Part shown: positions 1-37,683 of the stretch, piece after piece
Layout: each line of letters begins with the position of its first letter
Numbering within the stretch: the first letter of the stretch is position 1
From: Minisyncoccota bacterium
Lineage (GTDB): Bacteria > Patescibacteriota > Minisyncoccia > Phycocordibacterales > JABAAK01
Length of the DNA: 64,000 bases
Direction: 5' to 3'
Assembly: GCA_963668425.1 (NCBI GenBank)
Contig: OY764332.1
Span: forward strand, 41,241-105,240
The notes under the pieces: model-generated
Database searches by the model: none
Seen by the model: the letters and a program-made list of their open reading frames with translations, nothing else
What the model was told of the DNA's origin: nothing
Made by a program: the position numbers and the translations under genes

Positions 1-3000
1 CATGAAAATTCAGTAACAAACCGTGTCCCACCAGTAAAGTGTTTTGCAATATCTCGCCTACGAATAAGTCCAACGCGGTTACGTCCGTCGTCTTCCGGAA
101 CATCACTCACCACAGGAGCAATAGTGTCTTGCGTTAATTTGATCGGCGCAGAGAACACGGTAGGAAGGCCGCCTGTTTGGACTTGAACGCAGATATAGTG
201 GTCACCGTCCTTGGTAAGTGATGTGGCAGTCGGAGCAGTAGCGCTATAGGTGGCAAAAGATGCATCACAGGAAGAAATAGCACCGGCAGAGTGTTTCATT
301 GCATAGGTAGCTGTTGTAGCGGGAAAGGTGACAGGAGCGGAGACAAAGGCGACGCTATTTTTTACCTCTTCCGTATTTATCCATCCATCTTCCGCATCAT
401 TTATAAGTTTTGATGGAGTTATGACAGTAATCACAGCATCGGTAACCGTAAGAGCGATTGTGATTTCGGTACTGTTCCCTGCCGCGTCAAATCCGGTAAC
501 AACGATTTTTGTGTTGCCTTTTGCGACACCTGTAATAATTAACGTTGTTAGTGATAAACTGGCGGTAGCAACCTCGGTCTCAGTGGGGCTTTCCGCGCTG
601 AAATGCACTGCTTCATCAGTAAACAGAGAAGTAGTGGCAATGGTTTCAGATCTGCCGGCAATCACAAAAAGGGTGCTGGGAGCATCCGCCGAAACAGAAG
701 GATCAGAAGTGTCACGCACTACCTTCAAAGGAGTGTGGTATGAAATGAGATTTGTTCCCTTCTTACTGCGAACACAAATATAGTGGTCACCGTCCTTGGC
801 AAGTGATGCAGCAGTCGGAGCAGTAGCGCTATAGGTGGCAAAAGATGCATCACAGGCAGAAATAGTGTTGGTAGAGTGTTTCACCGCGTACTCAGTCGTA
901 GTGGTAGGCGTGGTTACTGCCGCAGAGACAAGAGCGGTCGTATTCGTTGACTCATCCTCATTGATATACCCATCTTCTGCATCATTTATAAGCGTTACCG
1001 GTGTTGTAATGGTAATTGTGGATACGGTCACGTTGACTGTGAAGATGCCCCGTATGCTGTTTCCTGCTTGGTCAAATCCGGTAACTGTAATGGTAGAGGT
1101 GCCACTCGTGTTGCCAATTCCTGTGAGTGTAAGATTCGGTGACTCAAACGCGGTAGTGAGTATAGCAGTGTCTGAAGGAGTGCCAGCCGCGTATGTCACC
1201 GCATCATTTGAGAAAATGGTTGACAGATCAATGGTGACAGGAGTGATGGTATTGACCGCGTGGACAAGCTTTGCTCCTTGAGCAATGGTTGGCGCAACGG
1301 TATCACGAACAATCACAAGAGGGCTACTGTAGTGCGCATCGTATCTTTCTTTTTCCGCCCGAGCACAGAGTGAATACATGCCGTCTTTGGTAAGTGCTGT
1401 TGTGGTTGGAAGTGCTGATGCATATGTACCTGAGGAAGCGTCACAAATAGAAAGTGCATCGGTTGCATGGTAGTGCAATGCGTAGGTGATCGTTGTATCC
1501 TGAGTAGTTTCTGCGGCGGCGACAAGGGCAAATGCTGCTTTTCTCAGTTCAGAAGCATTCACATACCCATCAACAGCATCGTTTGCAAGTGCAGGTTGAC
1601 TGGTAAAGGTAAGTGTGAAGAGAGAGACGGTTACCGTTATCGTTGCTTCAGTGCTATTGCCGGCAGTGTCTGTTGCAGAAATGACAATGGTACTCTCCCC
1701 TTTTCCGACTGCATTAAAGGTAAGTTCTGGGGTGCTGAAGGAAGTGCTGATGACACTGCTATCACTTGGTGCTCCCACACTGTAGGTGACTGCGCCAGTG
1801 AAGATGTCGCTGAGATCAATGGTTCTTTCATCTTCAATGGTATGTGCATAGGTAAGAGGAGTATCTGCGACAATGCTAGGTGCGACGGTGTCTCTGACTA
1901 CTTTGAGTGGTGTGGTGTAGATGGTGATGTAGCCCTTCTTTTCAGAGAGCGCACAAAGGTAGTGATCGCCATCTTTGCTGAGATCTACTGCGGTAGGAAC
2001 CGTAGTGCTGTAGGTACCGAATGTTGCATCACATGTGGTGATAGCTGTACTTGAGTGTTTCACCGCATACTTTGCTATTGCTGCCGGAGTAGTAACAGGA
2101 GCGGAGACAAGCGCAGTCGTCTCTGTTGATTCTTTAAGCGTAATGAAGCCATCTGTCGCATCATTGAGTAGTGTTGGGGCTGTTTTTGCAGTAAGTGCGA
2201 GAGAGGAAACCTCAAGGGTAAGCGTAACGTCATGACTGTTCCCCGCACTGTCACGCCCTGTTACTACAATGCTGCTGGTACCGCTGTCAATAGGAGTAAT
2301 AGTGAGTGTTGGACTGGTAAAGGAGGCAGTAACAACATTGGTGTCTGTTGGGTCAGCAACGGCATATTCAGTAGCACCGGCAAAGAGTGTGTCTACAGAG
2401 ATGGTGGCAGGGGTGGTAACAGTAAGGGTGTAGGAGGTTTTTGCACCAATAGCGCTTTGCGGCGCAATGCTGTCACGAGTAACTTTCAGAGGAGTGGAGT
2501 ACAGAGGAGCATACTTAGTTTTTATAGCACGGATACAGATATAGTAGGTGCCATCACTGGTCAATGATGCTACTGTTGGACGAGTGCTGGTATATGTTCC
2601 AAAGTCCGCATCACACGTTGCAATTGCACTGGATGACTGTTTCAGAGCATAGGTAAATGCTACATCAGCATTAGCGCTAGTGGCAACAAGAGAAGTAGTG
2701 GCGCTACTCTCTTGAGCATTCACATACCCATCAACAGCATCGTTTGCAAGTGTAGGTTGACTGGTAAAGGTAAGTGTGAAGAGAGAGACGGTTACCGTTA
2801 TCGTTGCTTCAGTGCTATTGCCGGCAGTGTCTGTTGCAGAAATGACAATGGTACTCTCCCCTTTTCCGACTGCATTAAAGGTAAGTTCTGGGGTGCTGAA
2901 GGAAGTGCTGATGACACTGCTATCACTTGGTGCTCCCACACTGTAGGTGACTGCGCCAGTGAAGATGTCGCTGAGATCAATGGTTCTTTCATCTTCAATG

Positions 3001-6000
3001 GTATGTGCATAGGTAAGAGGAGTATCTGCGACAATGCTAGGTGCGACGGTGTCTCTGACTACTTTGAGTGGTGTGGTGTAGATGGTGATGTAGCCCTTCT
3101 TTTCAGAGAGCGCACAAAGGTAGTGATCGCCATCTTTGCTGAGATCTACTGCGGTAGGAACCGTAGTGCTGTAGGTACCGAATGTTGCATCACATGTGGT
3201 GATAGCTGTACTTGAGTGTTTCACCGCATACTTTGCTATTGCTGCCGGAGTAGTAACAGGAGCGGAGACAAGCGCAGTCGTCTCTGTTGATTCTTTAAGC
3301 GTAATGAAGCCATCTGTCGCATCATTGAGTAGTGTTGGGGCTGTTTTTGCAGTAAGTGCGAGAGAGGAAACCTCAAGGGTAAGCGTAACGTCATGACTGT
3401 TCCCCGCACTGTCACGCCCTGTTACTACAATGCTGCTGGTACCGCTGTCAATAGGAGTAATAGTGAGTGTTGGACTGGTAAAGGAGGCAGTAACAACATT
3501 GGTGTCTGTTGGGTCAGCAACGGCATATTCAGTAGCACCGGCAAAGAGTGTGTCTACAGAGATGGTGGCAGGGGTGGTAACAGTAAGGGTGTAGGAGGTT
3601 TTTGCAGAAGTGAGGAGCTCGGGAACAGTGGTATCGCGAACAAGGGTAACTGGTTCAGAGTATTGTGTAGTAAGCCCGGCAGTTGCAGCCATAACACAGA
3701 TATAGTAGGTGCCATCACTGGTCAATGATGCTACTGTTGGACGAGTGCTGGTATATGTTCCAAAGTCCGCATCACATGTTGTGATAGCGGTAGTAGATGT
3801 TTTTAGTGCGTATTGAACTTTTGCGAAGAAGGGCGAAACGATAGGAGCTGTAATCAGAGCACTCTTTTTAGTAGATTCTGGAGCGCTGATATACCCATCT
3901 GTTGCATCATTTGTAAGCACCGATTTGGTAATAAACTTAATACGAGAAGCAAAGACGACAACACTCACAACCTCAGAAACTGAATTACCTGCCACATCAT
4001 GTCCGGTGATCTCAACTGTGGCAGACCCTTCATCAATACCGCTGATATGCAACATGTCTAATGAAGAAATGGAGGCACTTATCACCCTTTCGTCACTTGG
4101 TGTCCCTACTGTGTAGCGAACCGCATCATTAAAGACATCAGTGAGAGGGAGAGTAACGGGTGTCCCAGTGGTAATGGCGTAGGAAAGAGTAGCATCAGGC
4201 ACAATAGTAGGTATCACCGTGTCCCGACGAATACGACGCGGAGGAAGATACTCAACTGCATCCACATCACCAGAGAGGCGACGAGTACCACGAACACAAA
4301 GATAGTAATCACCGTCTTGTTTGAGATCTGTAATGCGAGGAAGAGCCGCCTTAAACAAAGTAGAAAATCCAGTTTCGCAGGAAGTAATAGGATCGGCTGA
4401 GTGCTTGAGTGCATACGCAACAGTGGTATTAGGAGAAAAAGGTTTTACTGCAGCAAGGAGTGTGTTACTTGAACGAGATTCCTCAAGGGAGATATACCTA
4501 TCTGATGCCTCAGAAGAAAGTGGTAGTGACGAAGAGCGTCCATACACCTCCACTATTCCTGTGTTCCCTTCTCTGTCTGCAAAAAAGAAACAAAGCGTTC
4601 TTCCTATGAGAGAAACAGCATGTTCTGGAGTCGCACTAAGAGTAAGCGCGCGCGACACAGAGGCAATACCCTCAAAGGAGGTAGTAGTATCAGAAAATTC
4701 TGAAACGGTAGCAGGACATGTTGTGTATGTAGGAACAACGTCAATAAGTAAGCGATCCACTCCTGTTCCTATTGTAGTACCACCATCAAACGTATCCGTA
4801 GACGTGACATATATTGTATCGGAAAACACATTGTTATACAGCCCAGAAGTGCGCGAACCATTTGCAGGGGCTCTATATGCAGCTGTAAAGGTGTCAGATT
4901 TTAGACCGCTGGTTTGCAGTCCTTCAGCTTTTCCGTTCTCTTGATATATTATTATTGACGGAGCGCTGGTATCCTCATCATCAAGGAATGACTCAGGAAA
5001 AGTCACTGCTGTCTCAAATGCTATGACTTCATTTTCTGCAATATCACGCAATGGCGCAATAGAAGGGGGTGTGTAGGAGAGGCGAAGAGCGCCTCTTGTA
5101 CCCCAATGCACTGAAAGAGGTAGTGTTACCGTATTACCAGAAATAGCAACAGAGGTAAGGTAGGAAACCGCAGATCCATCAAGTGCACGAGCAGTGTGAT
5201 TTAAGGAGAATGCGGAAACAGAAGGAGAAGTAGTAGTCAGTGGTTCACTAAAGGTAAGTGTAATAGCGGAGCTATCTTCTGCAAGGGTTGCGCGCTCAAG
5301 AGTAGGAATAGTTGTATCAATAGTACCAAAAGGGATGGCGGCACTCTCTAGTACAGGAGGTGTGGGGGTGTTGTCATTACCATCCTCAACAAGTATGCAA
5401 AATGTGTGCCTAGAAAGATCTGTAGTAATCTCTACAACTGCCTCTGTGGGAAGAGAGGCGTACTTTGAAGAAAGTACTATCTCTCCCGTGGTAAGAGTGC
5501 CGTCCTTGAGCGCAGTAGCAGAAGGACACGTGTCATCCTCAGGGATAAGTGCAGCAATAACCTGATCAACACCTGAAACAAGCACTTCCCCAGAGACCCT
5601 ATCACGAACAACGACATAGAAAGTTTGCTCTGCTCGTACAGGAATTTTTTTAACAATCTCTCCTGCTACAGAAGAGTAAAAAAGGTGGTCTGTAGACACC
5701 CCTTCTTTCTGTAGTCCGGCACGACGAGCACTTTCGGCATAGATACGAACTTCAGGCGCTATGGTATCAGAAGAAGGTGTTGCCACATCCTCAATGAGAA
5801 TGGTAAAGCTTCCTACACGCGCACCGCTTGTATTCTGTAGTGTTGTGCCCGAAGAAGGGGCGGTATATGTAAGCGTTACCGTATCACCAAACGTCCAATA
5901 TGTACGTAGAGGGAGTGATATGATTGATCCATCAACTGTAATAGCGCCATCAGGGTCAATGTGAGACACGCTCTCACCTTCACCATCAATTGCAGTAACA

Positions 6001-9000
6001 CTCAAAGAAAAGGCAGAGCTAAGTAATGCTGAAACAGCACTCTCAGGAGCAATATCTTCTTTAAACGAAAGCACGATACGATCTCCTGAAGGAGGAATCT
6101 CTGCGCCGGTAGCAGAGAACATATCTGTTGCTTTGAAAATAAAGGAGCTTGTAGTACTTCTTCCAAAGGCGTCAGTTGCGCGCACATCTACAATGACAGA
6201 GATAGGACTGAGAAAACGGATAGCTAATAACGAGTTTTCGGTAATAGTGTGAATCTGTACGGCACTATCCAAACGTACAGAAGAATCAGATGAGCGAAGC
6301 GTGACGGCATATGTAATCGGAGAAGTATCTTCAAAGAAATTGGCGAGCTGAGCATATCCAGTGTCTACTTGTGCCGAAGAAAGTAATTTTGAATGTTCTG
6401 GAATAGGGTCAACGACAAGACGAGGCGCGCTAAGATCAATGGCAACAGGGATATCAGAGACACGCACAGCAATGTTCCCTACGCGATCTTGAAGAACACG
6501 ACAAAGGTACTTACCATTCTGTGACTCATCAGGCACTTGAGGAATCTCGGTTGTAACACTGCCAGTAAGCCAAGCACCTTCGCCCTCTATCGAGCTGTGC
6601 AATGGGAGAAATGATGCGGTGTCAATAGTAGCAATACAATCACCCGGATCTGCAACAAATCCGTACACGTTATGAGACCATACACCGCTGCCAACATCCA
6701 TTACCTCTCCTGCATCTGTTGCAGGAAGAGTCGTGCCCGACACGCCACTGTTCAACCCAACAATACTTGGAAACGCGGGATTGCTTGGTGCCGACTTGTC
6801 AGCCCCAAACCGAAAAATAAAATGTGGTTGATTACCGATATCATTTCCTGTAAGGATTAACACTTCTTTACGTTGCGAACTTGACTTACCTGTTTCCAAG
6901 ACAAACTGAAAGCCACCATTACCGAGAGCTTCACGGGAAGAAGGGACGACGCGACACTCATCACAGCGAGAAAGATCAATAGTTAGAGCGTGAGGGGAGA
7001 CAGGGTCAGTAATCAAAACGGTGAGGTGCTCAGCAGTAGTCCATTCTCCATTAACAAATACTTCCCCGTCTGGCAAGGTTACCTCTGCGGTAAGTGTGGA
7101 GGAGCGGATGGGGATGATACGGGATTGCGTATATGATATATTCCCTGCATTATCAGCAACTTCATAACAGACCCTCTTATTATTTCGAGCATACACCATG
7201 TAGGCAGGAGTAGTAAATTGTGCACGTGTATCGGAGGAAATATCCTGCTTATCATCAAACCTCTCTGTGGTGCTGTCACATCTATCGGAAGCATCAATAA
7301 GAGCCACACGATAGTATGAGAGCCCTGAGGTGGTATCCTCAAACACTGCGGTTATATCGTGTGACAGTGCTGTAGCAGAAGGCGCGCTAACGTCTGAAAT
7401 GGTAGGAGATTTGGTGTCACGAAGCATTATAAGGGGTCCAAAAAATGAAGGTGGGAAATTGCCTTTAAATACCTGCACGCAGAGAGAATACGTACCATCC
7501 GTTGAAAACGACAATGCGCTTGGAGGAGTGTGCTGATAGGTGCCAGAGGAGAGAGCGCATTCTTCCGGTGGAGTGGAGGAAGGAATAACCGCATACGTGA
7601 TAGTAGGAGAAGCAACGTGTGTGGCAATCCCGCCAATAATTGCTTGTCCGGAATCTGATTCTGAGTTTTTAATAAATCCATCAGAGGCAACACCAAGCAA
7701 CCGTGGTGGCATCTTGAACAACACATCGGAAGATACAGCAATGCGTAACGGAGCAGAATAGACAGGACTAAGAGGTGAGTTTGCAGCTTTAACACAAAGG
7801 TAATAGATGCCGTCAGAAACGAAAGAGACAGCATTTGGAACGGTTTCTTTGTATGTGCCTGTGGAAGCAGTGCAGGTTGTCACAGGAGTGGTTGAGAGAA
7901 CCATTGCGTATGAAAAGGCGGTAGATTCCAATGAAACAACGATGCCGTTAATCACCGGATCTTCACTAAAGCGCTCTGCAAGAGTAATTTTGCCGTCAGA
8001 GGCAACACCACTGAGACGTGGCTCTTTTGTGATAACAATTTCAGAGGAAACAACAAGAGAAAGCTGGCGGGTAGTAGTGTTCCCTGCAACATCAGCTGCC
8101 TGTATTGATACAGATGTTTTTCCTTCCTTTAGAGCGGCAAAAGAAAGAGTGGTGCCATCATCTGAGAGTGACACAGTGGCAATTTCACTATCCTCCACTG
8201 AAGAAAGAGTGAAGTGAGAAGGAGTGGATTCTTTGACAAAGAACTTATGAGGAGAGAGGGTGAAGGAACCCCCTTTCGCCATAGCGACTTGAGAGGAACG
8301 AGCGGTTTTCTTTGGAGCGGTAGTATCTCTCATTATGAAAAATCGAGGTGCATGCCATGTAACAAACCCCGGTTTTGAAAACTCAATACATAGCGCAACG
8401 AGTCCGTTTTTAGTTATGCTGGTAGTGGTAGGGATGTCGGTGCTATATTGATGGTTACTGGACCTTACAAAAGAACACGAAGCGTTTCTATCAGTGCGGG
8501 AGTTAACACTTGAAGCCCTAAAGCGAACAGTAACCCCTTCAGTATCTGCCTTCCCTGAAGTTAGTAGAGGAAGATCAGCGACAACATCAGCAGTACTAAT
8601 ATACCCATCAGCAACGACAGGAGTAAGCGCAGGGTGTTCAGCAATGACAACACGAGGAGCCGTAACAAAAATTGAAATTCTCCTCTTGCTTCTACCAGGA
8701 TTACCGGCAATATCAGTTGCTGCAATCTCCAAAACTGCAGTCCCTAATTGTGAAGAAGGAAGGGCGGCAAGCGTGAGCTGTGACCCAACAAGTGAGATGG
8801 TAACTCTGGCACTCCCCGAAAGCTGCACTACCTTGAAAGTGGATGGCTCGTTAAATTCTCCTGAAATATCAAAAGAAATGGTATCCCCTTTTTCTACACT
8901 ATAGCGTGAAAGAAGTTTCTGCACGGATTGTGGATGCACTGAGTCAAGAATAATCTTGAGAGGTTGAGAATAGGCAGGAGCATACCCTTTCTGAGAGGCA

Positions 9001-9980
9001 CGAGCGCAGAGGTAGTATGTACCACCCTCTTCGTCAACAATTGGAGTAAGAAAATGAGGGGTAGGAACACGAAACTGATATATACTAATCCCCTCATCGC
9101 ACTCAGTAATCTCAGAAGGAGAATAGTGTATGGCATATGCAAACGCTGCCCCTGAAGAAGAGGCAGTGGGAGCTCTCATAAGAGGGATATTTCGTTGTAG
9201 CCGCTCTGCCGCATTGATATACCCATCAGCAGCGCTGTTAATAAGGGTGGGTTGGGTGGTAATAGAGAGTTTGGGGAGAAGAGAGAGTATCTGTACGGTA
9301 AACGTGGCAGTAGCACTATTCCCCGCTTTGTCAGAAGCAGATACTTTAACGGTTGTATTTCCGGGCTTGATCCCCTTCAAAAGAAGACCTCGAGGTGCGA
9401 TGGAGGCAGAGACAAGCGCAGGGTTTGCCGGCGCTGAAACAGTAAATTTTAACGAGTTACCCTCGGAAAAAGCATTTTTTATAGGGATAACGGAAGAAGC
9501 ATTAGCATGAACACTGTGACGCAAGTCACTCCACAGAAGATTTGGTGACAGGATGTCTCTCTTTATAGCATGCGGACGAGAGATGTATAGAGTTTCTGCC
9601 CCCTGTTTACGAAACCGAACACAGACAAAATACACACCGTCACCTTCAAGGCCTCTGAAAAGATTTATGGTAGTAGGCACAGAAGCACTATAGTTAGTGA
9701 GCGTGCTACAGTTGATAAACGTGGTACTAGGACTTGGAGATTTTTGTACAGCATATTCAACCGTCACTCCGTTGGTTGCGACAACCGGCGTAGAGAGTAA
9801 AATCTTATTTGACAAAATCTCTGACCGGTTGATATACCCATCTTCTGCGGGACCGGTAAGTTCTGCATGGGTAGTAACAACAATGCTTTCAGGAGATTGG
9901 GCAAAGGCAATAAGAGAGAAGCTGCCAAGAGCGCACAGTAACAATACAAAAAACAATGTAAATGTGTGTTTATACCCCAT
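1..9980 (-). CDS. Giant secreted repetitive surface/adhesin-like protein, partial (more than 3326 codons; the C-terminus lies beyond the window start). N-terminal signal peptide, then many Ig-like modules.
   Basis: Reverse-complement reading from an ATG at 9978-9980 opens with MGYKHTFTLFFVLLLCALGSFSLIAFAQSP. The first in-frame upstream stop is at 9999-10001. No stop was seen in this frame down to position 1. The recurring motif (A/T)xDGYI(N/S)xxE is followed by TCxxxxGTY...DG.YYxCV and DxAGN(S/T) about every 130-200 aa (for example near 9840, 9215, 8600, 3890, 2730, 1570 and 990). All plus-strand ORFs in the track over this span are low-complexity V/T/S/A-rich antisense translations. The ORF track appears to omit ORFs that lack a stop inside the window. 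Confidence 0.72.
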   Translation of the reverse strand, partial: MGYKHTFTLFFVLLLCALGSFSLIAFAQSPESIVVTTHAELTGPAEDGYINRSEILSNKILLSTPVVATNGVTVEYAVQKSPSPSTTFINCSTLTNYSASVPTTINLFRGLEGDGVYFVCVRFRKQGAETLYISRPHAIKRDILSPNLLWSDLRHSVHANASSVIPIKNAFSEGNSLKFTVSAPANPALVSASIAPRGLLLKGIKPGNTTVKVSASDKAGNSATATFTVQILSLLPKLSITTQPTLINSAADGYINAAERLQRNIPLMRAPTASSSGAAFAYAIHYSPSEITECDEGISIYQFRVPTPHFLTPIVDEEGGTYYLCARASQKGYAPAYSQPLKIILDSVHPQSVQKLLSRYSVEKGDTISFDISGEFNEPSTFKVVQLSGSARVTISLVGSQLTLAALPSSQLGTAVLEIAATDIAGNPGRSKRRISIFVTAPRVVIAEHPALTPVVADGYISTADVVADLPLLTSGKADTEGVTVRFRASSVNSRTDRNASCSFVRSSNHQYSTDIPTTTSITKNGLVALCIEFSKPGFVTWHAPRFFIMRDTTAPKKTARSSQVAMAKGGSFTLSPHKFFVKESTPSHFTLSSVEDSEIATVSLSDDGTTLSFAALKEGKTSVSIQAADVAGNTTTRQLSLVVSSEIVITKEPRLSGVASDGKITLAERFSEDPVINGIVVSLESTAFSYAMVLSTTPVTTCTASTGTYKETVPNAVSFVSDGIYYLCVKAANSPLSPVYSAPLRIAVSSDVLFKMPPRLLGVASDGFIKNSESDSGQAIIGGIATHVASPTITYAVIPSSTPPEECALSSGTYQHTPPSALSFSTDGTYSLCVQVFKGNFPPSFFGPLIMLRDTKSPTISDVSAPSATALSHDITAVFEDTTSGLSYYRVALIDASDRCDSTTERFDDKQDISSDTRAQFTTPAYMVYARNNKRVCYEVADNAGNISYTQSRIIPIRSSTLTAEVTLPDGEVFVNGEWTTAEHLTVLITDPVSPHALTIDLSRCDECRVVPSSREALGNGGFQFVLETGKSSSQRKEVLILTGNDIGNQPHFIFRFGADKSAPSNPAFPSIVGLNSGVSGTTLPATDAGEVMDVGSGVWSHNVYGFVADPGDCIATIDTASFLPLHSSIEGEGAWLTGSVTTEIPQVPDESQNGKYLCRVLQDRVGNIAVRVSDIPVAIDLSAPRLVVDPIPEHSKLLSSAQVDTGYAQLANFFEDTSPITYAVTLRSSDSSVRLDSAVQIHTITENSLLAIRFLSPISVIVDVRATDAFGRSTTSSFIFKATDMFSATGAEIPPSGDRIVLSFKEDIAPESAVSALLSSAFSLSVTAIDGEGESVSHIDPDGAITVDGSIISLPLRTYWTFGDTVTLTYTAPSSGTTLQNTSGARVGSFTILIEDVATPSSDTIAPEVRIYAESARRAGLQKEGVSTDHLFYSSVAGEIVKKIPVRAEQTFYVVVRDRVSGEVLVSGVDQVIAALIPEDDTCPSATALKDGTLTTGEIVLSSKYASLPTEAVVEITTDLSRHTFCILVEDGNDNTPTPPVLESAAIPFGTIDTTIPTLERATLAEDSSAITLTFSEPLTTTSPSVSAFSLNHTARALDGSAVSYLTSVAISGNTVTLPLSVHWGTRGALRLSYTPPSIAPLRDIAENEVIAFETAVTFPESFLDDEDTSAPSIIIYQENGKAEGLQTSGLKSDTFTAAYRAPANGSRTSGLYNNVFSDTIYVTSTDTFDGGTTIGTGVDRLLIDVVPTYTTCPATVSEFSDTTTSFEGIASVSRALTLSATPEHAVSLIGRTLCFFFADREGNTGIVEVYGRSSSLPLSSEASDRYISLEESRSSNTLLAAVKPFSPNTTVAYALKHSADPITSCETGFSTLFKAALPRITDLKQDGDYYLCVRGTRRLSGDVDAVEYLPPRRIRRDTVIPTIVPDATLSYAITTGTPVTLPLTDVFNDAVRYTVGTPSDERVISASISSLDMLHISGIDEGSATVEITGHDVAGNSVSEVVSVVVFASRIKFITKSVLTNDATDGYISAPESTKKSALITAPIVSPFFAKVQYALKTSTTAITTCDADFGTYTSTRPTVASLTSDGTYYICVMAATAGLTTQYSEPVTLVRDTTVPELLTSAKTSYTLTVTTPATISVDTLFAGATEYAVADPTDTNVVTASFTSPTLTITPIDSGTSSIVVTGRDSAGNSHDVTLTLEVSSLALTAKTAPTLLNDATDGFITLKESTETTALVSAPVTTPAAIAKYAVKHSSTAITTCDATFGTYSTTVPTAVDLSKDGDHYLCALSEKKGYITIYTTPLKVVRDTVAPSIVADTPLTYAHTIEDERTIDLSDIFTGAVTYSVGAPSDSSVISTSFSTPELTFNAVGKGESTIVISATDTAGNSTEATITVTVSLFTLTFTSQPTLANDAVDGYVNAQESSATTSLVATSANADVAFTYALKQSSSAIATCDADFGTYTSTRPTVASLTSDGTYYICIRAIKTKYAPLYSTPLKVTRDSIAPQSAIGAKTSYTLTVTTPATISVDTLFAGATEYAVADPTDTNVVTASFTSPTLTITPIDSGTSSIVVTGRDSAGNSHDVTLTLEVSSLALTAKTAPTLLNDATDGFITLKESTETTALVSAPVTTPAAIAKYAVKHSSTAITTCDATFGTYSTTVPTAVDLSKDGDHYLCALSEKKGYITIYTTPLKVVRDTVAPSIVADTPLTYAHTIEDERTIDLSDIFTGAVTYSVGAPSDSSVISTSFSTPELTFNAVGKGESTIVISATDTAGNSTEATITVTVSLFTLTFTSQPALANDAVDGYVNASELRKAAFALVAAAETTQDTTITYALHYHATDALSICDASSGTYASALPTTTALTKDGMYSLCARAEKERYDAHYSSPLVIVRDTVAPTIAQGAKLVHAVNTITPVTIDLSTIFSNDAVTYAAGTPSDTAILTTAFESPNLTLTGIGNTSGTSTITVTGFDQAGNSIRGIFTVNVTVSTITITTPVTLINDAEDGYINEDESTNTTALVSAAVTTPTTTTEYAVKHSTNTISACDASFATYSATAPTAASLAKDGDHYICVRSKKGTNLISYHTPLKVVRDTSDPSVSADAPSTLFVIAGRSETIATTSLFTDEAVHFSAESPTETEVATASLSLTTLIITGVAKGNTKIVVTGFDAAGNSTEITIALTVTDAVITVITPSKLINDAEDGWINTEEVKNSVAFVSAPVTFPATTATYAMKHSAGAISSCDASFATYSATAPTATSLTKDGDHYICVQVQTGGLPTVFSAPIKLTQDTIAPVVSDVPEDDGRNRVGLIRRRDIAKHFTGGTRFVTEFS
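1556..3778. repeat. Two tandem copies of a 1161-bp (387-codon) unit inside the giant gene. They are near-identical at the nucleotide level except for an ~75-bp divergent patch.
   Basis: ORF-track pairs 1637..1873 and 2798..3034, 2035..2235 and 3196..3396, and 1467..2054 and 2712..3215 have identical translations offset by exactly 1161 bp. Direct comparison shows 1556-2459 equals 2717-3620. The copies diverge at 2460-2533 versus 3621-3694, then match again at 2534-2614 versus 3695-3775. Confidence 0.9.
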
Positions 9981-10103
9981 ACAAAAGAAGGAACTATTTC
10001 AAGTGTAGCATGTACTGAAAGAGAGATTAAAAAAAACGGATGTGGAAAACTGCATATGTGCCATCTGACTCCCCTTCTTTTTTGTTAGGTTAGGGATTGG
10101 TGC

Positions 10104-10136
10104 AAAAAAACACACCTCGTAAAAGAGGTGTGTTTT
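10104..10136 (-). terminator. Rho-independent terminator for the 731-aa gene. It is bidirectional in form (A-tract, stem, loop, stem, T-tract) and separates that gene from the giant gene.
   Basis: aaaaaaa CACACCTC gtaaaa GAGGTGTG tttt. On the minus strand the perfect 8-bp stem is followed by a 7-nt T-run. It lies 85 bp after the stop at 10221. Confidence 0.6.
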
Positions 10137-10220
10137 AACTTTAACCTTCACGTAGTGCTGATAGGATTAGTGAGGGTTAAGGAGGAATAGGAAATCCCCT
10201 CCCCCTTACCTTTCAGGTGC

Positions 10221-12416
10221 CTATTTGCAGATATCTAACCGATCAGGAATGAACTGGACGCGGTTATTGTGCGGGTGTATTATGTTGGCATTATAGACTG
10301 CACCCTGAAACTCAATATAACTATCAGGATTGGCTGCGCAGTTGGAATCACCTGCATGATCAATTTCTATAGTCATGGTCTTATAAGCCCCGGACACACT
10401 ACCAATAGCATTTGTTTGCAGAATAGGGTAAAACTTAGATGGATCGCTTCCAACGTAGGATTGACCAGCAGCTATCGCTCTAACACTATATTTAGAATTG
10501 GTTATTGATCCTATGGGTGCTCCTTTAGTACGAGTAAGATCGGTTACTTTGAACATCTCGCGCCCGGTCTCTAAAGTCACATACGCTTTTCCACCCCGTC
10601 GTTCAATTGAGGTATAGATGTAGTTCCAATCATCGTTGTTGATGATGAATATGTCGACGCTCTGGGTCACGCCGTCAATTTGATCCCTGCTGATCAATGC
10701 CCGCTTTCGGAGTATATTATCATCCTTTATCCCTCCGGAATAAGAAAGAAGGCCGTTCTTAATGCTATAACTGATATCTTCGTATGTGGCCGTGTGGCTT
10801 GTCCTGATGCCGTCAGCTATCTTGACAGTGCTGGGAATCTCACACTTACCTTCTACCCACTCGTCGGACTCATTAAAGACAATAGGCAGTTCGCAAAACG
10901 CTCTTATGAGAATTATATTAAACGGAGTAAACCTATGGACTCTTGTCCAACCTTCTGGTCTGTGCATTCGTATTGCATAGATTCCAACATCCCCATTTGG
11001 ATCAGTTATCATAGTTCCTGAGATGTCAAATATCTTCTCACCCAAGTCATAGACACAACCTCCTATAGAACATCTATCAAATACCCACATACTTTGATCG
11101 GGAGTGAATACACCATTGGAATATGTGCCGTTATACCAGGTAAATTCAGCTCCCCATGCTTCTAATTCAGAAATACCTTCAATTCTGAATGGCGCCTGTG
11201 GAGGAATCTGTTTAACGGATATATCTAGTGTATTCCAGGTCAACCCAAATGACCCCCTAAATTCTTCACCCTCCCTTACGGCAATATTATCGTTCGCAAT
11301 CGGCCCGCCCCCAAATCTTCCGACAATTTCATCGTCAGTGGTTTGGATAAACAGCTGACCTTGAAGGGCGGCAGGAAGATTTACCTCGTGCCTATTCCCG
11401 TCAGTGTATATTTCGTCATTATGATTCCCGAAGACAATCCTGATAGCGCCAGAAGGTTCATCGCCAACTGATGGACGTATGATGATTCTATTAGGATCAG
11501 TGTTACCGTAAGTGATATGAATACCACCGCCAGTGCCAAGTGAGTTACTCCATGCAGTTGATGGAGAATTGAAGAAACAAACTACCCTACCCGCACTCTC
11601 TGGTACGGTAATCGTGTAGACAGGAGTGCCACCAGAAGTCCGCGAAGCAGTCACCTGATTGCAGTTGCCACTAGTATTGCCGGGATTATCTATAACTGTA
11701 AATGGTGCCCCATTCTGTTGCTGTTGCTGTTGTTGTGCTTGCGGCGCTTGGTCAACTACAACGACTTCTGGTGTGGGGTCAGGAGTTGGGTCGGCTTGTG
11801 GCGCAGGATCAGGAGTAGGTTGCGGAATTGGGTCTGCTGTGGCTGCGGCTTTTGCCTTCATACACAGAATGGCGTCAACTACGGCATCCCATCTACCAGA
11901 AGAGTTATGGACTTTCTGGAGTCGCTTTGCCTCGTCAAGAGTAACCACAGTAGCGTCGCTTGCTTGTCCATTAAGGGTGTCGCGGACGCGTGTCCAGCGT
12001 TCAACATGCTCTGCACCGTTTTGGGTCTCGTCAATGTAGCTCTGTACGTTGGCTAGCAGTTCATCGGAGACACAAGAGCCGTTGGCGTTCAAACACAACA
12101 TGGAGCCCAGTACTGGGTCCCATCTCGCTGCCGAAAAGCGACTCCACATGTTGCGAGCTTCGCTTAGCGTGGTTGGTGTTTGGCCGTTGTCCTCGCCGAA
12201 TGCTGCCAGAACTTTCATCCACCTAGCGACATGAACAGGTCCGTGTTGTACCTCTCCCGCCCATGATTTTACATCAGATATCAAGCCATTTGCTACACAT
12301 TGCTGAGTAGGTTGCTGAGTAGAGGCCGAAGTAGGAATTAATAAAGCAAAGAAAGCAAGAGTAATGATAAGCACGGTTGTTACGCTTGCTAACCGCCATG
12401 TTTTTAAATTTTTCAT
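10221..12416 (-). CDS. Secreted hypothetical protein (731 aa): signal peptide, two ~70-aa Trp/Arg-containing repeats, a Pro/Gln-rich linker with a Q7 run, and a ~480-aa C-terminal domain of unknown function.
   Basis: N-terminus MKNLKTWRLASVTTVLIITLAFFALLIPTSAST. Repeats of the form ...HV.RW..V....G........T..EA......S..RWD.V... occur at about residues 45-115 and 120-190. The linker reads PIPQPTPDPAPQADPTPDPTPE...QAQQQQQQQ (CAA/CAG repeat at 11716-11740). No family was recognised by eye. Confidence 0.65.
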   Translation of the reverse strand: MKNLKTWRLASVTTVLIITLAFFALLIPTSASTQQPTQQCVANGLISDVKSWAGEVQHGPVHVARWMKVLAAFGEDNGQTPTTLSEARNMWSRFSAARWDPVLGSMLCLNANGSCVSDELLANVQSYIDETQNGAEHVERWTRVRDTLNGQASDATVVTLDEAKRLQKVHNSSGRWDAVVDAILCMKAKAAATADPIPQPTPDPAPQADPTPDPTPEVVVVDQAPQAQQQQQQQNGAPFTVIDNPGNTSGNCNQVTASRTSGGTPVYTITVPESAGRVVCFFNSPSTAWSNSLGTGGGIHITYGNTDPNRIIIRPSVGDEPSGAIRIVFGNHNDEIYTDGNRHEVNLPAALQGQLFIQTTDDEIVGRFGGGPIANDNIAVREGEEFRGSFGLTWNTLDISVKQIPPQAPFRIEGISELEAWGAEFTWYNGTYSNGVFTPDQSMWVFDRCSIGGCVYDLGEKIFDISGTMITDPNGDVGIYAIRMHRPEGWTRVHRFTPFNIILIRAFCELPIVFNESDEWVEGKCEIPSTVKIADGIRTSHTATYEDISYSIKNGLLSYSGGIKDDNILRKRALISRDQIDGVTQSVDIFIINNDDWNYIYTSIERRGGKAYVTLETGREMFKVTDLTRTKGAPIGSITNSKYSVRAIAAGQSYVGSDPSKFYPILQTNAIGSVSGAYKTMTIEIDHAGDSNCAANPDSYIEFQGAVYNANIIHPHNNRVQFIPDRLDICK

Positions 12417-12490
12417 ACGTTAATTTTTTATGCTATATAATGTTTTATAATCCAATTTTATTATACTGCAGGTTCATTTTTTTTCGTTTA

Positions 12491-12501
12491 CCCCCCCCCC
12501 C
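12491..12501. repeat. Homopolymeric C11 tract (G11 on the minus strand) in the promoter/5' region of the 731-aa secreted-protein gene.
   Basis: ttttcgttta ccccccccccc gacattgtg. It sits 75-85 bp upstream of the ATG at 12416 on the coding strand. Confidence 0.9.
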
Positions 12502-12744
12502 GACATTGTGGAAAACTTATTGAAAACTGTTCAGCATGCTATATACTCTTTGCTCTCTTTTTAGGGTATATTGCACTGAACAGTATGGGCGTAAGCAAAA
12601 TATCCTGTATATTGACAGCAATATGAATACCTTATATGATATAGTTACGATTTAGTAGTTATGACAATGATTTATTTTTATGTATGTCATATTTTACTTT
12701 TTTTTACACACGGACAAATTAGCAATTTTTCTATATAAGTAGGA

Positions 12745-13665
12745 CTAGTGTGGGCGGTAGACCACTATTCCTGGTTTGTTTTTGAGGTAGGTGAGGAAGT
12801 CGTCGTCAATGACCTGCTGTGCTTTTTCTCTGGAGGAAGCGTGGCGTAGGTATGTTCCCCTGCTGTTTTTGATAAAGATACCGGTGTGCGTCACATCAAG
12901 TCCGTCAATGTCTGTGTATATTCCAATGTAGTCACCGGTGCGAAGGTTCTTCATGCTCTCGTCGGTAATAGCAGTAGACGGTATGTAGTTGATTGTACGA
13001 GACAGTATCGGAATTCCTTCTAGAAAAACACTGCCGTCTTTTTTCTGATTTAATTGCTTTTTAACAGGTATCGCCACATTACCCCCGACCTCTTTTGTCA
13101 CATCAGATACTTGATCACTGTTATACTTCACCCAGTCAGAAAAGAAGTGGTTTCTGTATTGAAACTCTACAATTCCGGATTTATATCGGGTGTGCTGTAA
13201 TGCGTTCAGAAAGGTGTCATATGAATCTGACAGGCGGGCTGCTTCAACATAATCAATATACGTAAAGCAATCCAACCCGGCGAGATGGACGGTGAGCTTT
13301 TCACGTGTTTTTGCACTTCCTACGAGGGTGTTCCCTTCATACGGGGTGCCTAAAAATTTCTCTGAGATGTGAGTAATTTGTTCTCCGATATCAGATAGGT
13401 GTGTGGATCCCTGTATTACACCAGAGAGTGTTTTTTTGGTCCAATTGCCAAGGTTTGTCTGTATGGCGTTCCTTGCCATTAGTCGCTCTCTTGCATGCAC
13501 TCCTGCTGGTATTGGGTCACCATGTTCCTGTGGTTCTATCTTGGCAAGCATAGAGAGCATGCTATATGCTATCCAGCTGATACCAATCAACATGCCCACC
13601 ATTCCTAAAAGTATTACTTTTGCTTTCATACTTATAGCGTACACTATGCCTGTCTTACACTGCAT
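12745..13665 (-). CDS. Membrane-anchored putative cell-wall hydrolase, NlpC/P60-superfamily (DUF1460-like, Cys/His papain-like).
   Basis: N-terminal TM segment MKAKVILLGMVGMLIGISWIAY. A GLDCFTYIDYVEAARL segment (candidate catalytic Cys) and ...DVTHTGIFIKNSRGTYLRHAS (candidate His) resemble DUF1460/amidase-like proteins. The assignment is from memory of the family. Confidence 0.4.
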   Translation of the reverse strand: MQCKTGIVYAISMKAKVILLGMVGMLIGISWIAYSMLSMLAKIEPQEHGDPIPAGVHARERLMARNAIQTNLGNWTKKTLSGVIQGSTHLSDIGEQITHISEKFLGTPYEGNTLVGSAKTREKLTVHLAGLDCFTYIDYVEAARLSDSYDTFLNALQHTRYKSGIVEFQYRNHFFSDWVKYNSDQVSDVTKEVGGNVAIPVKKQLNQKKDGSVFLEGIPILSRTINYIPSTAITDESMKNLRTGDYIGIYTDIDGLDVTHTGIFIKNSRGTYLRHASSREKAQQVIDDDFLTYLKNKPGIVVYRPH

Positions 13666-19383: not shown

Positions 19384-19406
19384 CCCCCCGCAAAAATGGG
19401 GGGGGG
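19384..19406 (-). other. C6 / 8-nt loop / G9 hairpin immediately 3' of the lipoprotein gene (terminator-like, but with no clear U-tract).
   Basis: CCCCCC gcaaaaat GGGGGGGGG. On the minus strand it reads C9 atttttgc G6. Confidence 0.3.
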
Positions 19407-19839: not shown

Positions 19840-19930
19840 CTATACAGTATTAAAAAGAATCTTTCTTTACTAATTGTACCACATATTCTGTATTTGGCAA
19901 TAACTTCTGGACTGCACACTACATGCTATT

Positions 19931-21215
19931 TTCCATACTACCCTGCCCTCTGGACAGCACGTCTATTTGTATGATGTCGCTGTGTGTTATTTTTTAATCT
20001 ACTAGTAGGCACTATGTGCATAGAGCATGGTGCCGTGTTACACTTTAGGTACTACAAAGGAGTTTTTTTCTATGGCATTACGTACCACAAAACAATATGT
20101 TCTTTCTGTTGCACTACTTGTGCTTGTTGTTGGTGTGTTTCTTTTTTTCTCCCCTGCACAGGTTGTAAGAGATCCTTCTGTGTCTGAAGAGAGTTTGGTG
20201 CAATCATCTTTACCGAGTCGTGCACCTGAGGGATATGCAGTGCCTGCACGAGAGGTAGTCACTCTTCCCTTTACCCATGTCAGTGCTGATCGTCTTCGTC
20301 TTGGAGATGTTCGGGAGGTGGCTGAAGGAAGGTGGGTAACGGTCATAAATCCATCTGTTGATAATTACTACAATGTATCGCCTGATGGGCAATGGTCGTT
20401 ATTCACAGGATTAAATCTTTACATCACCAGAACCGATGGATCTGGTGAAGTGCGCGAACTCTTTGCAAGAGAAGCAAATGATTCTAGCAAAGGGTATATT
20501 TTTAGATCTGCTTTCATTCCAACCGCTTGGTCTTGGGATAGCAATCGTGTCTTTTACAAGATGATACGCAGATATTTGGTTGGTCAAAATTTTTTGAATG
20601 CTGAATACGAACAATGGATTGAGAGTGTTAACATTGAGACAGGTGAAGTTACTCGCCATCCTGACATTGGTTTTAGTGATAATCTTCATAGTCACGCTAC
20701 TGCTCGCTATCCTACTGACCCAATTCTGTTTGATGACAGACCTGATTACCGACTGCATGGTATCAAAACTCATGATGGCTCTGTCAGATGGGTAATTCCT
20801 GGTTTCAGCCCATTTTCTCTTTCACCGAATAAGCGATTGGTTCTAGGGCTTGAAGAAGGTGGCAAAATAATCGGTGAAACAGGATATATCATGCATTACC
20901 TTATTTATGCCGTTGATGGAACTGGTCCGCTATACAGTTTTTACGCTGCAGATACCCCCAAATGGTCCCCTGATAGCAGTAAGTTCGCCTATTACCATGT
21001 AACAGAACGTGAAGCTGATACTGGCATCCTTCTTGCCTCAGATATCTATCTTATGAACATAGACGGCACTGGTATAACTCAACTCACTGATACGCCTGAT
21101 ATTCCTGAGCGTCTCCATGGTTGGACCCCGGATGGTCGTCTTGTTTTTAGTATCGAAGAAGATTTGTATATCGCTGACCTTGTTACAGAATAATTGAAAG
21201 GAGAAAACTGATGAA
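19931..21215. repeat. Direct repeat copy 1 (~1.29 kb): promoter region, TolB-like gene, and the first 8 codons of the downstream amidase gene.
   Basis: 19931-20060 is about 97% identical to 24701-24830. The genes encode about 70% identical proteins over their 5' halves. The 3' ~420 nt are nucleotide-identical (20790-21215 versus 25560-25985). Copy 1 ends with atgaaacgagttttttgttgtg (MKRVFCC), the same start as the amidase gene at 25981. Confidence 0.9.
20027..21193 (+). CDS. Membrane-anchored TolB-like beta-propeller (PD40/WD40-like repeat) protein, paralog 1.
   Basis: N-terminal TM segment VALLVLVVGVFLFFSP. PD40-type repeats: YNVSPDGQWSL, KWSPDSSKFAYYH, HGWTPDGRLVF. The start may be the internal Met (MALRTTKQ) at 20072. 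Confidence 0.7.
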   Translation: MVPCYTLGTTKEFFSMALRTTKQYVLSVALLVLVVGVFLFFSPAQVVRDPSVSEESLVQSSLPSRAPEGYAVPAREVVTLPFTHVSADRLRLGDVREVAEGRWVTVINPSVDNYYNVSPDGQWSLFTGLNLYITRTDGSGEVRELFAREANDSSKGYIFRSAFIPTAWSWDSNRVFYKMIRRYLVGQNFLNAEYEQWIESVNIETGEVTRHPDIGFSDNLHSHATARYPTDPILFDDRPDYRLHGIKTHDGSVRWVIPGFSPFSLSPNKRLVLGLEEGGKIIGETGYIMHYLIYAVDGTGPLYSFYAADTPKWSPDSSKFAYYHVTEREADTGILLASDIYLMNIDGTGITQLTDTPDIPERLHGWTPDGRLVFSIEEDLYIADLVTE

Positions 21216-21329
21216 ACGAGTTTTTTGTTGTGCATGTATTTGACACAGGACTTGCAGCATGACATACTTTTTGCAGAGCCTATTATTGATTTGAAAGATT
21301 ACATATATACAGGAGGAAATGTAGTGAAA

Positions 21330-21632: not shown

Positions 21633-21660
21633 CCCCCCCCCGTATAATGGGGGGTTCTTT
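21633..21660 (+). terminator. Rho-independent terminator (C9 / gtataat / G6 hairpin followed by TTCTTTT).
   Basis: tacccccccccgtataatggggggttcttttatgg lies 13 bp after the stop of the 21330..21620 gene. Confidence 0.6.
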
Positions 21661-24575: not shown

Positions 24576-24700
24576 ACACTGTTATGGTAGCATCCTATAC
24601 TGCCTCAAAGGTTTCATGACCAATTATTGTAAAAATACCGTTATATTCATTATGACAGGCGATACAGGATTTTTCTGTAACTTTTATGTGTGCTACTTTC

Positions 24701-25985
24701 CATGCTACCCTGCCCTTTGGACAGCACGTCTATTTGTATGATGTCGCTGTGTGTTATTTTTTAACCTACTAGTAGGCACTATGTGCATAGAGCATGGTGC
24801 CGTGTTACACTTTAGGTACTACAAAGGAGTTTACTATGGCATTACTTAAGACAAAACGATATGTTTTTTCTGTTGCACTGCTTGTGCTTGTTGGTGGCGT
24901 TGTTTTTTTACTTGTTTCTCCTGCACAGGTTGTAAGAGAGTCCGCATTACCTGAAGAGAGCTTGGTGCAATCGTCTTTACCGAGTCGTGCACCGGTAGGG
25001 TATGAGGTACCTACACGACCTGTCGTTACCTTTCCCTTTACGCATGTTAGTGCTGATCGTCTTCGTCTTGGGAATATTCAAGAGGTGTCTGAAGGAAGGT
25101 GGGTAACGGTCATAAATCCATCTGTTGATAATTACTACAATGTATCGCCTGATGGGCAATGGTCGTTATCCAGAGGATTAAATCTTTACATCACCAGAAC
25201 CGATGGATCTGGTGAGAAGCGTGCACTGCTGACACACTCAAGAGATAATCCTGATGATATAATATATATCTCTACCAATCGAATTGTTTGGTCCTGGGAT
25301 AGCAGTCGCATTTTCTACCCATTTAGGCGACAATACTACCTTGATGCAGAAAGTCTAACTAGTGAATATGAACAATGGGTTGAGAGTGTTAACATTGAGA
25401 CAGGTGAAGTTACTCGTCATACTGATATTGGCTACTACGCCAATCTTCATAGTCACGCTACTGCTCGCTATCCTACTGACCCTGTTATATTTGACGATAG
25501 TTTTGATTACCCACCAGAAGGCCCTCGTGGTATCAAAACTCATGATGGCTCTGCCAGATGGGTAATTCCTGGCTTCAGACCATTTTCTCTTTCACCGAAT
25601 AAGCGATTGGTTCTAGGGCTTGAAGAAGGTGGCAAAATAATCGGTGAAACAGGATATATCATGCATTACCTTATTTATGCCGTTGATGGAACTGGTCCGC
25701 TATACAGTTTTTACGGTGCAGATACCCCCAAATGGTCCCCTGATAGCAGTAAGTTCGCCTATTACCATGTAACAGAACGTGAAGCTGATACTGGCATCCT
25801 TCTTGCCTCAGATATCTATCTTATGAACATAGACGGCACTGGTATAACTCAACTCACTGATACGCCTGATATTCCTGAGCGTCTCCATGGTTGGACCCCG
25901 GATGGTCGTCTTGTTTTTAGTATCGAAGAAGATTTGTATATCGCTGACCTTGTCACAGAATAATTAAAAGGAGGAAACTAATGAA
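24701..25985. repeat. Direct repeat copy 2 (~1.29 kb), partner of 19931-21215.
   Basis: See copy 1. The two copies bracket the small lipoprotein gene plus the methyltransferase/ATPase cassette. Confidence 0.9.
24794..25963 (+). CDS. Membrane-anchored TolB-like beta-propeller protein, paralog 2.
   Basis: 389 aa. Same architecture as 20027..21193. The C-terminal 140 aa are identical at both protein and nucleotide level. Confidence 0.7.
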   Translation: MVPCYTLGTTKEFTMALLKTKRYVFSVALLVLVGGVVFLLVSPAQVVRESALPEESLVQSSLPSRAPVGYEVPTRPVVTFPFTHVSADRLRLGNIQEVSEGRWVTVINPSVDNYYNVSPDGQWSLSRGLNLYITRTDGSGEKRALLTHSRDNPDDIIYISTNRIVWSWDSSRIFYPFRRQYYLDAESLTSEYEQWVESVNIETGEVTRHTDIGYYANLHSHATARYPTDPVIFDDSFDYPPEGPRGIKTHDGSARWVIPGFRPFSLSPNKRLVLGLEEGGKIIGETGYIMHYLIYAVDGTGPLYSFYGADTPKWSPDSSKFAYYHVTEREADTGILLASDIYLMNIDGTGITQLTDTPDIPERLHGWTPDGRLVFSIEEDLYIADLVTE

Positions 25986-36674: not shown

Positions 36675-37683
36675 AATTGTACATCTCGTCTTCGGTTCCT
36701 TCTGTCTCCCCAATATCCTCTTCCTCTTCAAGAGTGATGGTTGTCACTGCGTCTGTACTGGTACTACCCTGCTCTGCTCCAGATGCATCTTCTAGTTTAT
36801 TGATAATGCCTTCCAAATCTTGTCCAGAGAAATAATCAATTACGATTTTGCCACCGGTCTCTCCTTGTGAGCGGATATGCACTCGTGTCTCTAGAAAACC
36901 TTCCAATACTGATTGTGCTTTTTGTACATATGGATCATGCTCAATTTTTCGTGCGCGGTTTTTTGCTTGCCGTCGCGCGATGAGCTCTGAATCCCGCACT
37001 GTTATTCTTCGATTTACAATTTCGTCAAATAATGCTCGTTGATCATCGGGGGTCTCCACCAACATTAGCAATGGTCTGGTATGCCCTTCCGATATTTTTT
37101 TATCCGTTACCGCCTGAATCATGTCCTCTGGCAGTGTTAGGAGGCGTATACTGTTTGATATGTATTCCCTACTACGACTCATCCGCTGCGCTACTTCGGT
37201 GTGCGTCATATTAAAATCTTCAATGAGCTGCTTGAATGCACGTGCTCGATCAATAGGGTTCAAATCATCCCGTTCAAGGTTTTCTATCATTGCTAATTCA
37301 AGTCGTATGTTATTTTCAGATATATCAACCCTGATTACTGCTGGCACTTCGGAGAGCCCGGCGATTTTTGATGCACGCAATCGTCGCTCTCCTGCGATAA
37401 GTTCGTATCGGGCTGACATATCACCTGTATCAGCAACGTCCTCTTTTTTTGTGACCACTAATGGCTGCAATACTCCATATCGCCGAATTGATTGTGCTAA
37501 GCTTTGTAATTTACCATCTTCAAACTCTTTTCTAGGTTGAAACGGATTTGGGTCAATTTTGTCAACTGATAGCCAGAATACTGACGGCTGGCTGTTATTA
37601 CCTGTATTCTGCACTATACTTTCCTCCATATAGTATGCAGTATACAGTATTCTTGTTATTCGTATATTGCTGGGCGGACACAA
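36655..37683 (-). CDS. parB: ParB/Spo0J-family partition protein. No adjacent parA.
   Basis: ParB box LIAGERRLRASKIAGLSEVPAVIRV, HTH region, and an acidic C-terminal tail. The start is probably an internal Met (MEESIVQ). The 3' end overlaps the rel 3' end by 20 bp (convergent). Confidence 0.85.
   Translation of the reverse strand: MCPPSNIRITRILYTAYYMEESIVQNTGNNSQPSVFWLSVDKIDPNPFQPRKEFEDGKLQSLAQSIRRYGVLQPLVVTKKEDVADTGDMSARYELIAGERRLRASKIAGLSEVPAVIRVDISENNIRLELAMIENLERDDLNPIDRARAFKQLIEDFNMTHTEVAQRMSRSREYISNSIRLLTLPEDMIQAVTDKKISEGHTRPLLMLVETPDDQRALFDEIVNRRITVRDSELIARRQAKNRARKIEHDPYVQKAQSVLEGFLETRVHIRSQGETGGKIVIDYFSGQDLEGIINKLEDASGAEQGSTSTDAVTTITLEEEEDIGETEGTEDEMYNFKNFSL

Follow-up and report, generated by a model that had tools for sequence, protein, structure and literature searches.

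A poly-G tract bordering the predicted promoter of an orphan secreted-protein gene, a candidate contingency locus in a CPR bacterium

Can a single run of eleven G, located upstream of a gene for a secreted-type protein, tune the expression of that gene by slippage in a CPR (Patescibacteria) bacterium, or is the run a passive product of the region in which it lies? Bacteria of the CPR carry few regulators in their very small genomes, and a life attached to other microbes is assumed for them. What is known of how they vary their surface comes mostly from diversity-generating retroelements. One case of CPR surface variation that involves a coding repeat is also known (PMC6851277). Full-text searches of the literature for Patescibacteria, CPR and Saccharibacteria turned up no account of phase variation by homopolymers or SSRs. 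The DNA analysed here is a stretch of 64,000 nt, referred to below as the window. It derives from a CPR/Patescibacteria (Paceibacteria-like) bacterium with a genome of about 0.7 Mb. The best genomic relative of its amidase-like protein is found on L001, a 662-kb 'Candidatus Paceibacterota' chromosome (OZ241963.1, 65% identity), and further close homologues come from a Kaiserbacteria MAG or from contigs 647-847 kb long. These amidase-like homologues were used to choose eight related genomes (L001, L161-L168), whose loci (93 kb) were compared with the window. The coordinates of the features are collected in Table 1.

Table 1. Features at and around the G tract, with positions in the window
Feature	Position	Strand	Remark
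Giant secreted/surface protein gene	3..9980	-	ATG 9980; >3325 aa, running off the window edge
Intrinsic terminator after 731-aa gene	10104..10136	-	Perfect 12-bp stem, then T run; inverted repeat
731-aa gene ORF	10221..12416	-	Orphan secreted-type protein
In-frame (CAGCAA)x3.7 repeat, Q7, mixed CAA/CAG	11715..11736	-	Tandem Repeats Finder (CTGTTG x3.7), score 37
~75-aa helical repeat, motif HV.RW...L.EA...RWD.V	11850-12299	-	Residues about 40-190; no Pfam model
Predicted -10 box TATAAT, G at -13	12465-12460	-	43 nt before ATG; in silico
A8 run between G tract and -10 box	12477..12484	-	About -31 to -24
G11 homopolymer (C11 on + strand)	12491..12501	- (gene strand)	Read directly from sequence
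11-mer AGTTTTCCACA	12507..12517	-	Second copy upstream of giant gene, 10041-10051
Long imperfect hairpin 12584-12526 and U-rich tail UUUUCAAUAAGUUUU	12512..12584	-	Probable intrinsic terminator of amidase-like gene
AmiA-like amidase-like gene (PF07313, formerly DUF1460)	12745..13665	-	Pfam E 6.7e-73

The G11 tract is real and is not a product of chance. On the strand of the gene the sequence around it reads ...CACAATGTC-G11-TAAACGAAAAAAAATGAACCTGCAGTATAAT..., and the ATG at 12416 places the tract 75-85 nt upstream of the start of the 731-aa gene. An earlier note on this DNA had described an uninterrupted C11 about 80 bp before that start, and both the run and its distance are borne out. Under a first-order model of the 64-kb window, 0.0026 C runs and 0.0010 G runs of at least 11 are expected by chance (0.0036 in all), and G11 is the sole G/C run of this length within the window. 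The lengths of G/C runs in the 64 kb drop steeply to 6, and the only outliers are 9, 9 and 11. The spacer that holds the tract (12417-12744) is 328 nt long and has a G+C content of 27% without the tract. A BLAST search with this spacer against the window and 167 loci returned only the self match, and no known RNA family (Rfam) was found within it at E up to 1, the only sub-threshold matches being near 10055-10252. A flank pattern permitting a tract of 6-18 nt had no match in JGI metagenomes. At eleven uninterrupted pairs the tract is long enough to slip, the length required of G/C runs being about 8-9 or more.

The protein encoded downstream of the tract is an orphan. A word-indexed search of 5.8 billion proteins recovered only the protein itself. 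It had no Pfam match and no PDB match with E below 0.01, and its sole NCBIfam match was InlK at 18.8 bits against a cut-off of 1100. The single-sequence AlphaFold model had a pLDDT of 36.5. By inspection the N-terminus, MKNLKTWRLASVTTVLIITLAFFALLIPTSAS, resembles a signal peptide. It is followed by two repeats of ~75 aa (36% identical, E 5e-17), a Pro/Thr/Asp-rich linker that ends in Q7, and a C-terminal region of ~480 aa. An exhaustive HMMER search with the whole protein matched 335 representative proteins at E up to 0.001. In the best 150 of these 335 matches, the top-scoring stretch always begins within the first third of the query and never beyond residue 114. The N-terminal module occurs in proteins with RTX, Calx-beta, Big_13, fn3 and surface Ig-like domains, and many of the representative proteins that bear it are very large surface proteins. 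Because this module is common to surface-type proteins, the 731-aa product is plausibly secreted or surface-bound, as the earlier note had supposed, and its C-terminal part appears to be without a recognisable relative. The ~75-aa repeat may represent an undescribed domain family.

Slippage within the coding sequence is a poor candidate for switching this gene. The G11 tract lies outside any reading frame, 75 nt before the ATG, and therefore no frameshift can arise from it. A (CAA/CAG)7 poly-Gln repeat had also been put forward as a slippage-prone element. The seven Gln codons (11715-11735) are present and in frame; the repeat is however only (CAGCAA)x3.7, which is a poor substrate for slippage and cannot switch the gene. 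Being short, of mixed codons and in frame, it is predicted to be a weak slippage element, and each slippage step would at most add or remove two residues of the linker, with no switching. A second small in-frame duplication (12 nt x1.9) is present at 12300-12322. Translational phase variation by frameshift was rejected, with the tract outside the frame and 6 and 12 as the only tandem-repeat periods within the gene, in which G/C runs stay below 6 and A/T runs below 7.

The position of the tract relative to transcription is set by the hairpins on the two sides of the gene. The hairpin at 12584-12526, folded alone, has an energy of -20.7 kcal/mol (z -4.06), and none of 200 shuffled sequences was as stable. 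The terminator after the 731-aa gene folds at -20.4 kcal/mol (z -5.27). With a hairpin and U-rich tail upstream and a strong terminator downstream, the gene is isolated by two hairpin terminators and therefore forms a separate unit. The upstream terminator confines the promoter of the 731-aa gene to 12511-12417 (~95 nt), and G11, which starts 10 nt past the terminator tail UUUUCAAUAAGUUUU, stands at the upstream border of this stretch.

The giant gene that follows encodes a protein with a signal-peptide-like start and weak matches to Ig-like, HYR and SWM domains, and it has a TACACT box of its own 21 nt before its ATG. It appears to be a transcription unit of its own, a neighbour of the 731-aa gene and not part of an operon with it. 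The placement of the 731-aa gene directly upstream of the giant gene is thus correct in that the two are neighbours and the giant gene is real, but a strong terminator lies between them and the link is positional only. The giant gene is itself preceded by a T8 run (10029-10036, read on the gene strand), which lies at about -34 to -41 from the TACACT box and adjoins the copy of AGTTTTCCACA at 10041-10051. The layouts of G11 and of this T8 run are parallel, a resemblance that is statistically weak.

What a promoter looks like in this genome can be read from the window as a whole. A Shine-Dalgarno sequence is seldom present upstream of the window's genes. Boxes of the form TA[TC]ANT are found 5-15 nt before start codons 12 times, where about one is expected, and others are found 20-55 nt upstream. 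When 29 of the window's -10-like boxes are aligned, G is the commonest base at -13 (17 of 29) with enrichment of T/G at -15/-14, and the 29 boxes have no -35 consensus. Boxes of the TG(G)TATACT or TATAGT type, 5-15 nt before an ATG, are seen for instance at 35187 and 53291 on the plus strand and at 36655-37629, 43421-44938 and 50371-50961 on the minus strand. As judged from these sequences, the pattern implies that many mRNAs are leaderless or have very short leaders and are driven by extended -10-like promoters.

For the 731-aa gene, the TATAAT at 12465-12460 is the sole match to TA[TC]ANT on the gene strand within 100 nt upstream of the ATG. It is the one consensus -10 in the stretch 12511-12417, and G11 lies 25 nt upstream of it. 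When this box is set at -12 to -7, G11 falls at about -38 to -48 relative to the predicted transcription start. The tract would hence be promoter-proximal, yet not within the -35/-10 spacer. The proposal that the tract lies in the promoter is partly upheld by this map: G11 is at the upstream edge of the only possible promoter stretch, but it is not between a -35 and a -10. The mapping of promoter elements relative to the tract, which had been suggested as a check, was carried out in silico, and it places the only consensus -10 downstream of the tract in a genome whose promoters have no -35 consensus.

A sigma-70 consensus scan of the spacer found no site on the gene strand, which agrees with the absence of -35 boxes in the genome. 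The scan found three good sites on the opposite strand, and the total count of sites was equal to that in shuffles. Two of the plus-strand sites, TTGAAA-16-TATACT at 12520-12547 and TTGACA-17-TATGAT at 12612-12640 (the latter with 11/12 matches), oppose the strand of both flanking genes. The TTGACA-17-TATGAT site is 20 nt before a small ORF for a hydrophobic peptide of 25 aa (12661-12738, plus strand; MTMIYFYVCHILLFFTHGQISNFSI). With a site count equal to shuffles, these opposite-strand sites may be due to chance. Upstream of G11, where a rheostat-type promoter would have a UP-like element whose alignment with the core varies with tract length, there are two T4 runs 11 bp apart (12526-12523 and 12515-12512), which overlap the terminator tail. 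No activator site is evident near the tract. The 11-mer AGTTTTCCACA was considered as a regulator site. Both of its copies lie 4-5 nt from a homopolymer; 1.85 matches are expected at up to one mismatch, and the 11-mer is absent from all related Paceibacterota loci. It was rejected as fitting chance and unconserved, and the pairing of its two copies is probably a coincidence.

In classical transcriptional phase variation the tract lies inside the -35/-10 spacer, as in Neisseria porA, opc and fetA, Haemophilus hifA/B and Mycoplasma vlp. The locus described here resembles these systems in having a poly-G/C tract of at least 9 beside a surface-protein gene in a host-dependent bacterium. It differs from them in that G11 is outside the spacer and the genome's promoters are without a recognisable -35 box, and therefore on/off switching by spacer length cannot be the mechanism. 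A closer parallel is Helicobacter pylori sabA, where a T-tract adjoins the -35 and experiments showed that its length alters how the DNA further upstream lines up with the core promoter, giving graded output (Aberg et al., 2014; PMC4081817). Given the predicted -10 box, G11 likewise lies directly upstream of the -35 position and outside the -35/-10 spacer of a surface or secreted gene, with AT-rich DNA further upstream, in a small genome with few regulators. In contrast to sabA, the candidate tract is G:C and not T:A, and the phylum and lifestyle differ. Poly-G contingency loci of Campylobacter jejuni, both intergenic and intragenic (reviewed in PMC8355987), share with G11 the feature of G/C tracts of 8-13 that stand out in an AT-rich genome otherwise without them, and the association with surface structures. 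C. jejuni however has dozens of them per genome, mostly in reading frames, whereas there is one candidate in 64 kb here, outside the frame. The nearest precedent by phylum is the hypervariable gene of PTD repeats of a Gracilibacterium (CPR), where slipped-strand mispairing has been put forward (Sieber et al., 2019; PMC6851277). It too is a surface-type gene, and the 731-aa protein has a Pro/Thr/Asp-rich linker as well. The Gracilibacterium case is a long coding array of 9-mers with heterogeneity at the level of reads, whereas G11 is a non-coding homopolymer.

Its place at the upstream edge of the predicted promoter makes G11 a plausible candidate for a slippage-driven expression switch or dimmer. 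Since the tract is promoter-proximal but outside the -35/-10 spacer, a sabA-like dimmer ("rheostat") would, by analogy, fit it better than an on/off switch. The reading that we tentatively favour is that G11 is a hypermutable poly-G:C run that borders the promoter of a monocistronic orphan secreted-protein gene and tunes its transcription by slippage. Replication slippage would gain or lose G:C pairs in the tract. Each change of one bp would shift and rotate (by ~34 degrees) the upstream AT-rich DNA, here the two T4 runs, relative to a core promoter that consists of TATAAT with G at -13 and, like promoters of this genome in general, lacks a -35 box. The outcome would be a graded, heritable and reversible change in the transcription of the 731-aa gene, so that individual cells would differ in a secreted or surface factor whose gene neighbours that of the giant surface protein. 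What we infer from the layout of the locus is where transcription starts, that the tract slips in this organism, and any influence that this has on expression.

Comparison with related genomes bears on this reading and on its rivals. The amidase-like gene, whose stop codon is 244 nt from G11, is the last gene of a conserved order. The gene order upstream of it (a peptidase M16 pair and others) is kept across related loci, and the gene 3' of it is different in every relative: an S8-type protease, restriction-modification, integrase, copper oxidase and AhpC genes and small ORFs are found there. The site after the amidase-like gene is thus a hot spot of cassette exchange and gene content. Gene-content hot spots are typical of niche or host-interaction genes. 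Among the nearest relatives, which have at most 72% identity in the amidase-like protein, the 731-aa gene is absent from all loci compared. Protein-guided scans of genomes and metagenomes returned distant relatives only, at most 65% and 57% identical, and neither the 731-aa product nor the amidase-like one had a record in exact-protein look-ups, also when the version of the database itself was queried.

One relative has a long G tract of its own in this region. In L001 a G13 (10866-10878) starts 17 nt beyond the stop codon of the amidase-like orthologue and reads as G on the coding strand of this gene, as G11 does in the window. It is the sole G/C run of 8 or more in the 93 kb of related loci, where such runs are thus nearly absent. 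It lies between convergent genes, and a scan found no promoter there. A TAGGAT box is present 2 nt after G13, and a GTG-initiated ORF of 46 aa starts at 10896. No tract follows the amidase-like gene in the seven other relatives, including the closest (70-72% identity in the amidase-like protein). The flanks of G11 and G13 cannot be aligned, and the spacers of the window and L001 are similar in their coding end only. Judging from L001, a long G tract may occur in this lineage without being a promoter device. Long tracts were also seen in unrelated Thermodesulfobacteriota MAGs, namely a C12 and a C14 in L030 (13845-13856 and 18758-18771) and a G16 in L036 (18706-18721). The two L030 tracts are preceded by a common motif of ~30 nt, cctcattcttaagt..a.tctt..gag, and the L030 and L036 tracts may be repeated promoter-associated tracts of another lineage. 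The window also has a duplicated segment (19924-21230 and 24691-25990, 85-99% identity), which comprises a promoter, an entire gene of 388/389 aa and the start region of the next gene. The two 388/389-aa genes are recent paralogues whose 3' part is 99% identical over 300 nt.

The strongest rival, possible though in our judgement not probable, is that G11 is a neutral product of slippage: a short G run expanded in a weakly constrained spacer at the edge of a recombination-prone, gene-variable region, and its length may vary with no phenotype. In its favour, the spacer is unusually long, unique and unconserved, and the region after the amidase-like gene has been rebuilt in every relative. The G13 of L001 occupies an equivalent spacer without an obvious promoter role, and neither a -35 box nor an activator site links G11 to the promoter. 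On the other hand, the near absence of other long G/C runs argues that such runs are normally purged or contracted, in which case an intact run of 11 must have arisen very recently or be maintained. The placement of G11, wedged between the terminator tail and the -10 box at distances of 10 and 25 nt, is also tight for a neutral product.

We think it improbable that the tract is tied to the end of the amidase-like gene, or to the junction that follows, and not to the 731-aa gene; it would then be an insulator or pause element past the terminator, or a sequence favoured at or created by cassette recombination. What speaks for it is that the only two stand-alone G/C runs of at least 9 in 157 kb of this lineage, G11 and G13, both come after the amidase-like gene, both with G on its coding strand, and that the conserved gene order stops there in both genomes. 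The seven relatives without a tract, the unalignable flanks and the unequal distances from the stop (244 nt for G11, 17 nt for G13) all count against it, and no mechanism for such an element is known. With ~20 spacers in L001, moreover, a recurrence such as that of G11 and G13 would arise by coincidence with a probability of a few per cent, too high to be dismissed.

Two further alternatives are very hard to sustain. The first, a decayed or atypical terminator with a G/C stem, is suggested by two hairpins elsewhere in the window that lie 8-13 nt past stop codons (C6-N8-G9 at 19384-19406 and C9-N7-G6 at 21633-21654). These hairpins are probably terminators; their arms include the two 9-mers of the window (G9 19398-19406 and C9 21633-21641), and being unequal they may themselves be changeable by slippage. 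The plus-strand outline at the tract, C11-gacattgt-GG, recalls their C9-gtataat-G6 and C6-gcaaaaat-G9. There are just two G to pair with at the tract, however, and no complementary run nearby; the local fold is weaker than in all 200 shuffles (z +2.35), no gene end adjoins on either strand, and the upstream gene has its real terminator just before, so a hairpin role for G11 was rejected. The second, that the run is an assembly or base-calling artefact or truly much shorter, we consider barely credible: the exact length of G11 in a metagenome assembly is uncertain, homopolymer length being the least reliable call in long-read metagenome assemblies such as the relatives' contig names (and these names only) suggest, but sequencing errors change runs by a base or two and do not make an 11-mer inside unique AT-rich sequence, and G11 is in the middle of a 696-kb contig whereas two-colour poly-G artefacts arise at the ends of reads or contigs.

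The reading in which G11 borders and tunes the promoter leads to a bolder proposal, which we regard as speculative and rather unlikely as it stands: that this is the first simple-sequence contingency locus in CPR (Patescibacteria), where a slipping poly-G stochastically tunes an orphan secreted protein beside a giant surface protein and so pre-diversifies clonal, ultra-small, host-dependent cells for interaction with host cells. A variant more remote than this is that poly-G tracts mark or promote a cassette-exchange junction after the amidase-like gene, with G11 and the G13 of L001 as its examples. More modestly stated, G11 is a credible candidate for a familiar kind of contingency locus, with a promoter geometry that is non-classical, in a phylum from which none has been described. 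Should its length prove variable and set the level of expression, a strategy of host-adapted pathogens, the contingency locus, would extend to the CPR, and the orphan 731-aa protein would be flagged as a host-interaction factor.
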